64,000 nucleotides of DNA from Protoeuglena noctilucae (Eukaryota), in assembly GCA_958009085.1 (NCBI GenBank), contig OY253673.1, forward strand, positions 1,240,001 through 1,304,000. The letters run 5' to 3'. Numbering within the stretch: the stretch's first letter is position 1; each line of letters starts with the position of its first letter. Under the pieces are notes generated by a model. It made no database searches. It worked only from the letters and a program-made list of their open reading frames with translations, and was not told the DNA's origin. Both the position numbers and the translations under genes were made by a program. Below are positions 6,443-64,000 of this stretch, in pieces.

Positions 6443-8744
6443 ATGCAGGCCGACACGAACACGACGGCCTACAGCTTCAGGTGAAGGGCTCCGAGATGCA
6501 GCTCGCTGCTTCACGGGTGTCGCATGGGGACTGCGCGTGGATGCCGCCCTGCCGGGTCCTCGGTGCGACGCAATTCCGCCTGTGGCGCTGGCCCACCCGA
6601 GCACCGCCCGCACAAGCGAAGTTGCAGCGCTCGCTCCGGCCTGCAGGCAGCTTGCAAGGCTGGCGGTGCGAGCGTTTCATGCGGGACATCACGGCGAGAA
6701 CATGAAGGAGGCGAGGCGCTGTGACTGGATGCGCCCTTGCAACAAGCGCTCGCGAGCTCTCCAGCCCCCGCGGACTCGCGCCATGGCCTGTTCTTCTGTC
6801 GCAGAAGGACAACTCGGGCCTGGCGGTCATGGTGGTGGACTTTATGACGAGCCCCCAGCGCGAGTGGGTCGCGGAGGACGAGATTGCCAACCGGCTGTGC
6901 ATGGACCGTCGGCAGGTCTCCGTGGTGCTTAAGGCGCTGCGCAAGCTGCGGTTCGTGATGCACGAGAGCGCCGTCATCAACGGGAAGAGGGAGAAGGGAG
7001 TCACCGTGCAGGCCCAGGTGTGGCAGCGGAGACACGGGGGCAGTGCAGGCAGGCACACCAATGATGGACTTTACCAATGGTAGCCACGCGCCCGCCAGTG
7101 CCTGAGACATGACCGACCGCATGCAGGACGTGCACGTGGACGACAGCAAGCGTGAGTACAACGACGACGATGACCGACCGCGCCGGGAGGACCAGGAGAA
7201 GCGAGTCATTGATTTCTGGGCCATGGACTACCCCTCCATGGTGCGTGTGTGCGATTCACCCAATGTGCATACTCTTCGAAAAGCCAGGAGTCGTAGCAGA
7301 GTGCGCGGGCAGCGACATGTACCTGTCGACGGGGCAACAGGCACGCGCATGCCGCCACGCCGTGACGTGCTTTGGGCTTCTCATATACCGACGCAGTTGG
7401 ACATGGTTCGGCTGCGGGTGGCCCGTGCGGAGAAGCTCCTGGAGGTGGAGGGTCCGGAGGAGGCCAAGGACGACGGCTTCATCTGTGTGCAATGCGCCGA
7501 GCTGGCGGGGTATCGCCACAAGTGGAGCGTCCTGGATGCAGTGCAGCTGCTCGACCCTGCCACGCACACCCTGCGGTGCCCCACATGCAGGTAAGACCAC
7601 GCGCTCACGTCACATCCGCTCCGACCCTCTCGTGCAAAAGCGTGGCGGGGGTGGCTTGGGTGACCCCAGGCGCGCCACCCACGTCTGCCTGCCGCCCTGC
7701 GTCCAGGACCGGGCTAATTTCGGAAGAACAGTGGATTCTGCAGCGCGCACGTGGCCAAGTGGCCAATGGAGGGGAGGCGGGGCCTGGGCCCGAGGAGGGC
7801 GCTTCGGCGGGGGTTGCCCCGGACGTCGTCGAGTCTCTACTATCGCTGATCCAGCGCGTGGGGTTGGATTTGATGCGAGCCAAGTTCCGCACGCAACTCC
7901 AGGGGATCCTGGATGTGCTGGGGCGGACGCGGGGGCAAGACCCGCCGGACTTCGGGACCTTCATCGGATGGCATCGGGTGCAGATGGCCAAGCGCAGGGA
8001 GGCTGCCGAGAAGGCGAGCGCGGTGGCGCAGGGCGCGTGTAGATGCTGTAGAATGCCAGGGATCGACTCGAGGGTGCAGGCGCCGATGCCGAGTTCGCTC
8101 ATGTGTACACGGGGGTTGTTTGCGGCCTAGGATCGTGCTGCGTGCTTTGACTGACCGCAGAAGGCGGAGGAGGCGCGCAGCAAAGAGCTGGCGGGGCTGG
8201 GACGGCCGGGGGGCAGTGCAGGGGCAGGGGCGGGGTCCCATACACGGCGTGGGCCTGGGCTGTCGCAGTCGGCGCTGCCTTGGGAGGAGTCTGTGGACGC
8301 GGAGGCTGCGCCGGAGGAGAAGGTGAGAGGAACAGGCGGGGAGGAGGCGGGCTCGTGCGTGCGTAAGTGCGTGCGTGCATCAGACGTCCCGGTGTAAGCC
8401 CATCGCCTGCCAATCAGCATGGCCGCTCACATGTGCACTTCGTACATGGTGCCTCGCTGCAGGGTGCGCTGCCGTGGCTGATGGGCGCGGCGGCGGCGGC
8501 CAGGGTGGCGGTGGCGGGGGGACCAGGGTCGTCAGCAGCCGCAGCAGCACAGCCGGGGGCGCCAGATCTGTCAGTCAGCGAGCCACCGGCCAAGCGAATC
8601 AAGGTGGAGGAGGAAGGGGCAGGGGCGGGGGCGATCCCCGCACCTGGGGCGGGGGCGGCACAAGACGACGATTTGGAATGGGAGGAAGCGGGAGGGGCCG
8701 AGGGTGGGGCAGACGAGGGCGGGCTTGAGTGGGAGGAGCTGTGA
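6443..8744 (+). CDS. GTF2E1: General transcription factor TFIIE alpha subunit
   Basis: FRQLARLAVRAF..DNSGLAVMVVDFM..WVAEDEIANRL resembles the plant TFIIE-alpha winged helix. It has a Zn ribbon (CVQC...LRCPTC), PPDFGTF and an acidic tail DDDLEWEE. About 8 exons, two with GC donors (6711, 8014). Confidence 0.9.
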
Positions 8745-9064
8745 GGAGTTTGGTCTTGTCTTGGGACTGCCACTTGCTTGCCAGCATCAGCAATGCTGGC
8801 GTTACCCTATTGATTCCTTCACCGCTGCCCATTTCTTCTATTCAACACCAGCTATTTGGATCATCAATGGCCTGCCACTTTAAAGCTGAAACTCGACCTC
8901 GCCTCCCCTCGACGAATGAGCGATGGAGTCCGTCCATTGTGTCCCGGCGCTGGGCAGGCTGACCCGCTCCTCTCCCAACCTCTGCATGGGTGGGCAACGA
9001 CGGCAGTCGCGAGCACGATTGACCCAACGTGCGATGGCCAGCATTAAAAAAACGTAAGACGCAT

Positions 9065-10416
9065 TCAAAGACACCAGAGCCCACGACCGTCACCCATGCA
9101 GCACGCCCGCACCTCGACGCCCACCATGCCCCGCACGATGATCCGCGCCCCGTACACGGCGCAGAGCGAGCTCGGGTCGCAGTTCCGGAACATGCTGCTT
9201 CCCGATAGCTCCACGAAGCTGCCGGCGCCCTTGGCGCGGACCGACTGCATGGGTATCCCCACAAACTCGCAGTCTGCGGGGGTGGCAGAGAGCAGTATGT
9301 GTCAGATGCTGGCCAGTCCCAGCTGCATATCGCCATATATACGTACCGAAAGGAGATAAAATTGGGTCATTTCACACCTGTGATACTGGCGTGGGCACCC
9401 CCAAAGACGTAGACGCCGAAATGTTTGGCCGACACCCGGCATCGCTCAAGGCGCAGAGAGCAACCGCGCTCAGCCGCCACGCATCCCATGCCCAGCGCGT
9501 CCCGCACCGTGCAGCCCTCCATGGACACGGCGCTGCCCTGCACACAGCAAACGTTGGAGGCCCCCCGCACGCCCACCATGTCGCAAGCTTGCATGGACAC
9601 CTGCGCCCCTCCCACCGCCTGCACGCAACGACCAGGACTGTGCTGTTTGCTGTTGGCTGAGCCAGGGCCATGCCCCAGATGCTGGGACGCTGGGGTAGCG
9701 ACAGCGACCAGGGAAGGGTCGCGTGAGAGCGATACCGTGACTTGCGCACAGTACGTCACGTTGCTCTCCCACCTGCACGGCGTACCCCGCGCATCCGTGG
9801 ACCCAGCAGCCCTGCAGGGTGGCTGACCCGCCATCCACAATCAAGGCCGCCCCCGCTCGCTGACTGGGCGCGCGCCCCTCCATTGCAGATCCCGCCGTGC
9901 CCCTCCAGCCGCCCTCCACGAATCCCACGTTGCAAAAACTGACGTTCCGCGCCACCACCACCAAACACGCCGCCACCGGCACCCGCCGGCTCGCCACCAT
10001 CTCCTCGACGCCCGCGTCATCGACAGCTGCCCCAGCGGGACCGTCCCTTGCGCCCACGCCCGACGGGGAGCGGAGGCGGTACTTGAAACCACTTTGGAAA
10101 ACGATGGTGCCGTTCGCGAGGGTCACGCCGTCCCGGTCCAGCAGTAGGGCTGGCTGGGGCTGCAGGGCAAGCGGCAGGGTGCACAGTCGACCAACAGGAG
10201 CGGTGACGGAGCAGTGGTGCAAATGGATGGGGTCTGGTCCAAACCATTTCTACTCACGTCTGGCATGTGGATGGTGCGCCCTCCCAGGTCGATCACGCGG
10301 CACCGGGGGAGGGCCAGAAGGGACTGGAGCTCTCGCATCGTCCCATCCACCAGGCGCACGCACTCCAGGGTGTTTGCCGCAATGCTGACGCACAGCTCCT
10401 GGGGAACACGCGCCAT
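9065..10416 (-). CDS. Right-handed parallel beta-helix (pectin lyase-like) repeat protein
   Basis: Repeating motifs ATLQGCWVHG, VSMQACDMVG, VSMEGCTVRD and LRLERCRVS, plus GVTLANGTI, in 4 exons. The start may lie further upstream (about 10550). Confidence 0.6.
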
Positions 10417-62669: not shown

Positions 62670-63042
62670 GGCAGCGATGGAGATGTGGTAGACGTCCGCC
62701 AAAGCGCAGCGTCCTTGCATCGGCGCAAAACAGTGCAAGTCCTCGGCACGTGTCAGAACAGCTCGTGCGTCGCAATGAGTCGACTTTTCGAGCGCAGCAG
62801 CGCTGCTCTGACAACAGCTATCCTTCCATGAGCTGTCTGCGGCCGCAGTTCTGGGCATCCCAACAGCACTTACTCCCAGCACAGACTTGTTCTCCCTTGC
62901 GGGCTTCCCTGGACGCCTGCCTGCGCAGCTTGCAGTGCGGTAGCTCGTGGGAAGTCCCCGCACTGGAACGCCAAGATCGCGCGGTCCCATCGCCCACAGA
63001 GCGAGCCAGCCCACGGCGGCCCCGTGCCACGGGGAGGAAGCC

Positions 63043-64000
63043 ATGGCGACGGGGACCAACCCCATCAAGTACAAGCTGGTCTTTGTTGGGGACCAGTCTG
63101 TGGGGTGGGTCCTGCATCAAGCGCGGGGCTGAGGAGGAGGGCATGGCCCTGCGCCGCGAGCGCTCCGGCCCTCTCCAGCTGGCCGATCGGCCGACGGACG
63201 CCGGCTTCTCTGTATACGCAGGAAAACGGGGATTGTCATGCGATTCATGTACGATAAGTTCGATTCCAACTACCAGGCGACCATCGGGATCGATTTCCTT
63301 TCAAAGGCGAGGAAACACGCAGCCCTGCCGTCCCCGCGGGGTCTCAGGGCCTCCGCCATTGGATCTAGACTCCATGTAGTAAGCGGGAGGTGGCTGGCGC
63401 TTAACGGAGCGTCCGCGTCCCGCGTGGCACGAGGGGAGGGCCGGCCTGCGTTCGTTTCTGCAGACGATGTATCTCGAAGACAGGGCGGTCCGCCTGCAGT
63501 TGTGGGACACCGCCGGGCAGGAACGGTTCCAGTCGTTGATACCGGCCTACATCCGGGACAGCGCGGTGGCCGTGTGCGTGTACGACGTCACCAGCCGCAA
63601 GTCTTTCCAAGCCACGCAGCGATGGGTGAGGCCGGTCACTCTGCGATGGCGATCCCACCCATCGATGCTGTAAATGCGAGTGAACTTGCGACCCTGCCGG
63701 CCTCCCACGGCGCTCGGGGCGCGTGACTCGCCACCGTTGCTCCCGTTCATGCCAGGTCGACCAAGTCCGCGACGAGCGCGGAGACGACGTGATCATCGTG
63801 TTGGTCGGGAATAAAGTGGATCGGGCTAGCGACCGGGAAGTGAGCGCGGAGGAGGGGGAGGCGAAGGCCAAGGACCTACGGGCCCTTTTCATGGAGGTGA
63901 GGTGTGGTCGGGTGCTTGAGGGCCTGTGGCGCACTCTGGTGCGTAGAGGGCGCGGCCGACGCGACGCCGAGTGAGCACGGCGTTACTTCCGAGGCCAGTT
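63043..64000 (+). CDS. RAB6: Rab6/RabH small GTPase (3' end beyond the window)
   Basis: [54 protein letters not shown] and VLVGNKVD. Confidence 0.95.

Follow-up and report, generated by a model that had tools for sequence, protein, structure and literature searches.

Can introns that start with GC, where GT is the norm, form a sizeable part of the introns in a eukaryotic gene region, and if so, under what conditions does the splicing machinery accept them? This question is raised by one 64-kb window of Protoeuglena noctilucae contig OY253673.1, where "the window" is the whole stretch of 64,000 nucleotides that was analysed; coordinates follow its own numbering and all shares given below are window-level. 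Initial inspection of this DNA (the original prediction) had named twelve introns starting with GC and ending with AG (GC-AG introns), all with the donor AG/GCRAG, in which the slash marks the splice boundary and R is G or A. Direct reading of the window finds this sequence at 12 of the 12 named positions on the stated strand, so that the placement of the donors was accurate. Eight of the twelve sites are proven GC-AG introns, six by RNA and two by gap-free homology (63307 and 16557). The DNA that houses them is GC-rich throughout, with a G+C content of 67.2% overall and 64–71% in each 4-kb bin.

The RNA evidence comes from four marine metatranscriptome runs (X1–X4) of a single study, used as assembled contigs and not as reads. 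These runs contain 41–52% of the sampled words from 40000–49999, a proportion expected where exons, and not introns, are present in the runs. Contigs were aligned on 28950–48949 (20 kb), the stretch with most of the claimed sites (7 of 12). The joints examined are the best 15 of 40 by support, each of which was slid across its own ambiguity range and checked for canonical boundary pairs; a sixteenth RNA-proven intron, 38628–38743 on the minus strand, was inferred from two pieces of a single contig and is GT-AG. After sliding, nine of the 15 joints are GT..AG and six are GC..AG. In each of these six, GC..AG is the sole canonical-type boundary within the slide range and GT..AG is impossible, and the proposal of true GC donors thus withstands the check for use of a nearby GT. 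The six joints, supported in three of the four runs, define the following introns.

34442..34529, plus strand: GC-AG intron of the DUF1995/LPA3-like gene, donor cag/GCAAGA, RNA joint 34438>34527 in three runs.
43267..43361, plus strand: GC-AG intron of SHMT, donor cag/GCGAGG, RNA joint in two runs.
43488..43596, plus strand: GC-AG intron of SHMT, donor aag/GCAAGA, RNA joint in three runs.
46571..46644, minus strand: GC-AG intron of the alpha/beta-hydrolase gene, donor cag/GCGAGC, RNA joint in three runs.
46928..47010, minus strand: GC-AG intron of the alpha/beta-hydrolase gene, donor gag/GCGAGC, joint 46927>47011 in three runs.
48517..48742, plus strand: GC-AG intron of eIF3a in phase 1, donor aag/GCGAGG, RNA joint in three runs.

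Details of the individual joints agree with this assignment. The exon downstream of the 34442..34529 intron matches Pfam DUF1995, and the eIF3a_PCI_TPR-like profile runs continuously over 48517–48742, with profile positions 1–58 before the intron and 57–107 after it. For the hydrolase intron 46571..46644, the 10 slide positions yield a single canonical pair, CT..GC (plus strand), and the joint 46927>47011 likewise reads CT..GC on the plus strand. Unspliced X4 contigs covering 42995–43381 and 46160–46674 show 0 differences to the window; as these are independent environmental contigs, the C at intron position +2 of the donors at 43267 and 46644 is not an assembly error. A single mismatch was seen at 48749, 7 bases into the eIF3a exon past the GC-AG intron, where all four runs carry T and the window G; this position lies 9 letters from the contig end in three runs and may reflect strain variation or an artefact of the contig end.

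Protein-level evidence places the same boundaries by a separate route and extends the proof to two genes outside the RNA-aligned stretch. A 471-amino-acid protein, P0004, derived from a 1567-nucleotide environmental contig, is 100% identical to the SHMT query exon and aligns by tblastn to six pieces of the window that track the SHMT exons at 82.6–100% identity. It equals the spliced SHMT product, reading FPSLQGGPHNH across the intron at 43267 and ALKARGYKL across that at 43488. When alternative splice models were scored against five independent homologues and summed, the GC model at 43267 reached 1352 against 1257 for the best GT model, and that at 43488 reached 2571 against 2466; in addition, the SHMT Pfam profile is continuous over 43488–43596 (positions 274–319, then 318–398). 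In the Rab6 gene, exon 1 aligns to residues 15–42 of the Rab6B chain 2e9s_A and ends with ...DFLSK at K42, while the following exon opens with TMYLE at residue 43 (T), leaving no gap; the neighbourhood of the donor at 63307 contains no GT. The statement that conserved protein sequence forces the GC junctions of SHMT, Rab6 and eIF3a therefore agrees with P0004, with 2e9s_A and with profile continuity.

The second homology-proven intron lies in a gene that had been labelled PILS. A HMMER search retrieved 25 relatives of this gene, and the Mem_trans family (PF03547) is present in 4 of the 4 relatives scanned (P0127, P0143, P0145 and P0146), making the label a fair one. Homologues such as P0123 read ...AAAQVGVGLL... 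through the junction without a gap, and among 69 splice models scored against six homologues the GC donor at 16557 ranks at the top with 1514, ahead of the next model (1394) and the best GT model (1389). The two introns placed in this way are listed here.

63307..63463, plus strand: GC-AG intron of Rab6, donor aag/GCGAGG, placed by protein continuity.
16466..16557, minus strand: GC-AG intron of the Mem_trans (PILS-like) gene, donor cag/GCGAGG, placed by gap-free homology.

A further database entry from the PILS-like gene, P0122 (87 amino acids, 16528–16788, minus strand), is an unspliced open reading frame whose last 10 residues are encoded by the GC intron at 16557. It matches the PILS-like exon at 99% but was rejected as junction evidence, being a read-through frame with no junction information.

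Three observations concern the surroundings of the SHMT gene. A GT-AG intron of 421 nucleotides at 41747–42167 (plus strand), supported by an RNA joint from two runs, precedes the SHMT start codon, and since residue 1 of P0004 maps to 42176 it is an intron of the 5' untranslated region. At the other end of the gene, a run of A past the contig end at 44164 (plus strand) in X4, about 75 bases beyond the end of the SHMT frame at 44089, is likely a poly(A) site. Just 3' of SHMT, a gene at 44605–46347 (plus strand) gives weak matches to LEA_4 and apolipoprotein-like repeats, all sub-threshold in Pfam, and contains an RNA-proven GT-AG intron at 44645–44738.

What sets the GC donors apart is their sequence context, not the frequency of their motif. 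Counting both strands, the window has 30 copies of the heptamer AGGCRAG, compared with 26.2 +/- 4.8 in dinucleotide shuffles, and motif enrichment was accordingly dropped as evidence for GC-AG introns; AGGTRAG occurs 22 times in the window. At least two AGGCRAG copies are left unspliced in proven exons, namely at 42375 (plus strand) in SHMT and at 47615 (minus strand) in the hydrolase gene. As the heptamer is not enriched, the case depends on splicing evidence rather than on motif counts. Among the RNA-proven donors, AG/GCRAG is found in 6 of 6 GC donors, whereas the corresponding AG/GTRAG is found in just 2 of 10 GT donors (Fisher p=0.0035), which bears out the contrast drawn earlier between strict GC and degenerate GT donors. 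Adding the two homology-proven sites gives 8 of 8 strict GC donors versus 2 of 10 GT donors (p=0.001). Viewed from the other side, proven donors with the full AG/GYRAG context carry C at +2 in eight cases and T in two, while in the modelled set described below the same context is shared about equally between 14–15 GC and 13–14 GT donors.

Modelled GT donors are essentially G/GTG, with G in 88% at -1 and in 97% at +3, and carry A in just 50% at -2 and 47% at +4; the suggestion that GT donors in this lineage are relaxed is in keeping with these values from the model. C at +2, by comparison, is found only where all remaining donor positions fit the consensus. The acceptors are similar in the GC and GT classes: 15 of the 16 RNA-proven introns end in GCAG, and 12 in CGCAG. 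Signals of U12-type introns (a GCATCCT donor or a TCCTTRAY branch box) were sought in the twelve introns and neither is carried by any of them. In 7 of the 8 proven GC-AG introns, the final 60 bases contain no YTNAY branch-like motif, which means that the branch signal must be either unusual or very degenerate.

Gene structure across the whole window was modelled with a self-trained hidden Markov model (HMM) with explicit intron lengths and GC-donor priors of 0.03–0.3, which also supplies the denominator for the share of GC-AG introns. For single sites, the cost to this model was expressed as the nats lost when the GC donor is forbidden, a measure that ranges from 1.2 to 14.6 at proven sites (1.3–14.6 at the six proven by RNA). 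Because the proven sites span this range, the model cannot decide the sites at 6711, 8014 and 20687. These three and the site at 29179 each have a nearby open-frame GT donor, and their use as GC-AG introns, although predicted by the model, is not proven.

6711..6804, plus strand: possible GC-AG intron of a weakly TFIIE-alpha-like gene, donor gag/GCGAGG, modelled at 3.1 nats, with an open-frame GT at 6666.
8014..8160, plus strand: possible GC-AG intron of the TFIIE-alpha-like gene, donor aag/GCGAGC, modelled at 3.2 nats, with an in-frame GT at 8023.
20687..20880, plus strand: possible GC-AG intron of a gene without a family, donor cag/GCGAGA, modelled at 3.6 nats, with an in-frame GT at 20696.
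29179..29288, plus strand: probable GC-AG intron of the Bud23-like methyltransferase gene, donor aag/GCGAGG, modelled at 12.2 nats, with an in-frame GTAACC at 29224.

The GT alternatives at 8023, 20696 and 29224 keep the same acceptor as the respective GC donors, the one at 8023 lying 9 bases downstream of 8014. For these four sites, searches yielded neither a protein derived from transcripts nor a usable homologue, PDB match or metagenome contig. The Pfam TFIIE_alpha match to the gene carrying 6711 and 8014 has E=0.004–0.009, below threshold. A homologue search with the TFIIE-like exon 7708–8013 returned only P0121, an unspliced frame of the same DNA, and one with the exon 6805–7017 returned nothing; PDB searches with both exons gave chance matches only (E about 1), and an exact 26-base pattern from the TFIIE-like exon had 0 matches in metagenome contigs. 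Five exons of the gene with 20687, compared to Pfam at E up to 10, revealed no family and a single chance match (E=0.13). The Bud23-like joint at 29179 is absent from the best 15 of the 40 RNA joints, and a search for this gene in metagenome contigs gave 598 pattern matches, none of them confirmed. Thus, of the twelve GC-AG introns originally named, eight are proven, while those at 6711, 8014, 20687 and 29179 have model support alongside GT alternatives. P0121 itself (181 amino acids) covers 7585–8127 (plus strand) and reads into introns; like P0122, it is a prokaryote-style gene call on a eukaryotic contig.

Three further candidates, unlisted earlier, were predicted by the model.

13302..13388, minus strand: candidate GC-AG intron, donor aag/GCGAGG, model only, 14.4 nats.
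25896..26055, plus strand: candidate GC-AG intron, donor cag/GCGAGA, model only, 6.1 nats.
55051..55170, plus strand: candidate GC-AG intron, donor cag/GCGAGG, model only, 2.7 nats.

How large, then, is the share of GC-AG introns? Introns are dense in the window, at about 2 joints per kb within the RNA-aligned stretch 28950–48949. Among RNA-proven introns, 6 of 16 are GC-AG (95% confidence interval 15–65%), and the chance of finding at least 6 in 16 would be 7e-9 at a true share of 1% and 0.003 at a true share of 10%. If only the seven listed sites in 28950–48949 are GC-AG, they amount to about 7 of the 40 joints found there. For the window as a whole, the HMM predicts 159–162 coding introns with 18–26 GC donors, of which 14–15 have the strict motif (about 9%). 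It recovers 14–15 of the 16 proven introns and all 12 claimed sites, a result that is partly circular, since the six proven donors served as the seed of the GC-donor matrix and training included the proven sites. The HMM is thus of use for counting introns in total, and not as independent proof. The 4–11 GC calls without the strict motif are doubtful. Two GC calls of the model were rejected as false: at 38758, where RNA places a GT donor at 38743, and at 29328, where the call would cut a conserved Bud23 segment. As at least eight of the roughly 160 modelled introns are proven to be GC-AG, the floor is 5%, and the share in the window is most likely about 9–10%. The earlier count of about 10% GC-AG among about 120 introns comes close to this estimate, the modelled value being 14–15 strict GC donors in 159–162 introns.

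Several features of these introns were observed directly, namely their splicing, the strict context of their donors and the high G+C content of the surrounding DNA. A mutational origin, its direction and a compensation through U1 and U6 small nuclear RNA (snRNA) are inferred, the latter two on the basis of established knowledge and of the published work cited here. The introns would be ordinary introns of the major spliceosome (U2-type) that start with GC instead of GT, and, judging by their donor sequence, would be removed with the use of U1, U2, U4, U5 and U6. Substitution pressure towards G and C in DNA of about 67% G+C may convert the T at +2 to C. Such a C would be tolerated only where A at -2, G at -1, a purine at +3, A at +4 and G at +5 pair fully with U1 and later with U6. 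This compensation would leave the GC donors strict (AG/GCRAG) and the GT donors free to stay loose (G/GTG...). We consider it likely, with good confidence, that splicing in the window is of the ordinary U2 type and tolerates C at +2, which accumulates under G/C pressure and is kept only where pairing with U1 and U6 is full. The GC-biased shift from GT to GC suggested at the outset fits this picture in three respects, these being the 67.2% G+C, the restriction of C at +2 to consensus donors and the GC-rich nature of the published cases. The interpretation first offered is, as a whole, supported in part.

Some points weigh against this interpretation. The RNA share of 6 of 16 (37.5%) exceeds the modelled share of about 9% (P=0.003 at a true 10%), and the excess reflects either a biased choice of the best 15 of 40 joints or a clustering of GC-AG introns in well-expressed genes, the latter not being predicted by purely neutral drift. 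G+C content alone is also insufficient, as Micromonas RCC299, at 64% G+C, is reported to have only 2.7% GC-AG introns (Iwata and Gotoh, 2011, BMC Genomics 12:45, PMC3033335), leaving some lineage factor unexplained. Furthermore, direct GT-to-GC conversion was not observed, 4 of the 12 sites are unproven, and the RNA derives from one study and from contigs only.

A lineage factor of this kind could lie in the spliceosome itself. An altered U1 5' end, U6 ACAGAG box, U1-C or Prp8 might make GC a co-canonical donor, as might be read from the eight C versus two T at +2 among proven full-context donors (14–15 versus 13–14 in the modelled set) and from the difference between Micromonas species beyond their G+C content, for which base modification or proteins of the U1 small nuclear ribonucleoprotein (snRNP) have been proposed (PMC3033335). 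According to the same source, however, the 5' 11-mer of U1 has the unchanged consensus (AUACUUACCUG) in Aureococcus and in two Micromonas, M. pusilla among them, which by analogy speaks against the adapted U1/U6 snRNAs that the original prediction had considered possible. The GC donors still require all other pairing positions, as normal U1 and U6 predict, and C outnumbers T two to one in the window DNA, so that near-equal use at +2 still means that T is preferred. An altered spliceosome is therefore regarded as unlikely. A search of the window against Rfam at gathering thresholds found no family, hence no snRNA. A broader proposal is that C at +2 equals or exceeds T in fitness within the consensus context, GC being a second canonical donor through a change in the U1 snRNP or in U6/Prp8, or through biased gene conversion. 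Its basis is the same count of eight C versus two T, together with an excess of GC-AG introns in the best-expressed genes, as read from the 6 GC-AG joints among the 15 best supported, and it is regarded here as unlikely. If true, it would make the gap between GC-AG-rich and GC-AG-poor algae of high G+C directly testable.

Selection for regulation, in which GC donors persist as weaker splice sites permitting intron retention or alternative splicing, or as a means of tuning highly expressed genes, could account for the 6 GC-AG joints among the 15 best supported (SHMT, eIF3a, hydrolase and LPA3-like genes) as against about 9% in the model. For the GC donors of mammals, alternative splicing has been put forward as a target of selection (Churbanov et al., 2008, PMC2490688). 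On the other hand, none of the six sites has an alternative joint among the best 15 of 40, and the sample consists of 16 introns from one 20-kb stretch, with a contig depth that is unsuited to ranking genes by expression. The unspliced X4 contigs are uninformative on retention, because the pieces are colinear with DNA, X4 has no depth at the 15 joints and DNA may be present in the RNA library. Regulation thus appears improbable as the cause. Least credible of all is an artefact, in which the true donors would be nearby GT dinucleotides, or C at +2 would be an error due to assembly or strain. Open-frame GT donors do occur near all four unproven sites (6666, 8023, 20696 and 29224), and our own HMM wrongly called a GC donor at 38758 where RNA gives GT at 38743. 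Yet no GT..AG boundary fits the six RNA joints, homology excludes the GT models at two more sites, and unspliced environmental contigs share the GC at 43267 and 46644 with 0 differences, so that the artefact reading is refuted at 8 of the 12 sites. Tolerated C at +2 in otherwise ordinary U2-type introns remains the preferred explanation.

The identity of the alga helps to place this finding. The closest named SHMT is that of Pedinophyceae sp. YPF-701, with 87% identity over 231 amino acids, and a maximum-likelihood tree built from 27 SHMT sequences places the window protein in a clade with YPF-701 and three environmental sequences (support 98/99). As judged from this single conserved gene, the alga is probably a pedinophyte-related chlorophyte. 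The same clade suggests that a marine pedinophyte-related alga is present in public metatranscriptomes. No paper linking pedinophytes with GC-AG introns appeared among the hits listed (10 of 194 in one search), with subscription journals outside the search, so that its absence is not established. One further local feature of the window is a short repeat flagged at 37080–37127, where reads are seemingly cut.

For annotation, the consequences are immediate. Gene finders restricted to GT donors would mis-model about 1 in 10 introns here, including those of SHMT, eIF3a and Rab6, and protein databases already contain unspliced read-through frames from this DNA (P0121 and P0122). The window adds a further, probably unreported, green-algal lineage to the GC-rich algae that are rich in GC-AG introns, and provides a small, clean data set in which positions -2, -1, +3, +4 and +5 must all fit the consensus for C at +2 to be accepted. 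No new question is opened by it, as both the pattern and the question of what causes it had been set out by 2011; the surprise for specialists is low and the value is practical, lying in annotation.

Comparison with known systems supports this assessment. In animals and Arabidopsis, U2-type GC-AG introns account for 0.4–0.9%, and their GC 5' splice sites fit the consensus better elsewhere in the donor, offsetting the mismatch with U1 at +2 (Sheth et al., 2006, PMC1557818). The introns described here share with them the better fit to the U1 consensus than GT introns and the same acceptor, but are roughly tenfold more frequent, or more. A net conversion of GT to GC has been inferred in mammals (PMC2490688). 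Among algae, Iwata and Gotoh reported GC-AG shares of 39.6% in Aureococcus anophagefferens, 22.2% in Micromonas pusilla and 7.7% in Chlorella sp., tied the excess to G+C content and termed its origin an enigma (PMC3033335). Like the window, with its 67.2% G+C, these algae are GC-rich (64–70% as published) and far exceed about 1% GC-AG; two of the three are green algae, and the share found here lies within the published range. Pedinophytes are outside the 61 species of that study, and the present data cover one 64-kb window rather than a genome.

Other lineages extend the comparison. In Emiliania huxleyi, 56% of 241 curated junctions are GC-AG (Feldmesser et al., 2014, PMC4028052); as in the present case the GC donors are confirmed by transcripts and the acceptor is AG, and the authors credit a genomic G+C of about 65%. 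This species differs in being a haptophyte that uses GC at most of its donors and has some GA donors as well, whereas GT forms the majority here. Pelagophytes show a similar share and a similar link to G+C content, with 14–17% in Aureococcus strains, about 14% in Pelagomonas calceolata and 0.32% in the low-GC Aureoumbra (bioRxiv 10.1101/2024.10.30.620910), but are stramenopiles with 0.1–0.9 introns per gene, in contrast to the intron-dense window. The original prediction had regarded frequent GC-AG introns as an unusual trait of this lineage, a premise that takes no account of the pattern published for GC-rich algae in 2011 (PMC3033335). The abundance of GC-AG introns in the window is a known phenomenon, described in GC-rich algae since 2011, and is both real and ordinary.

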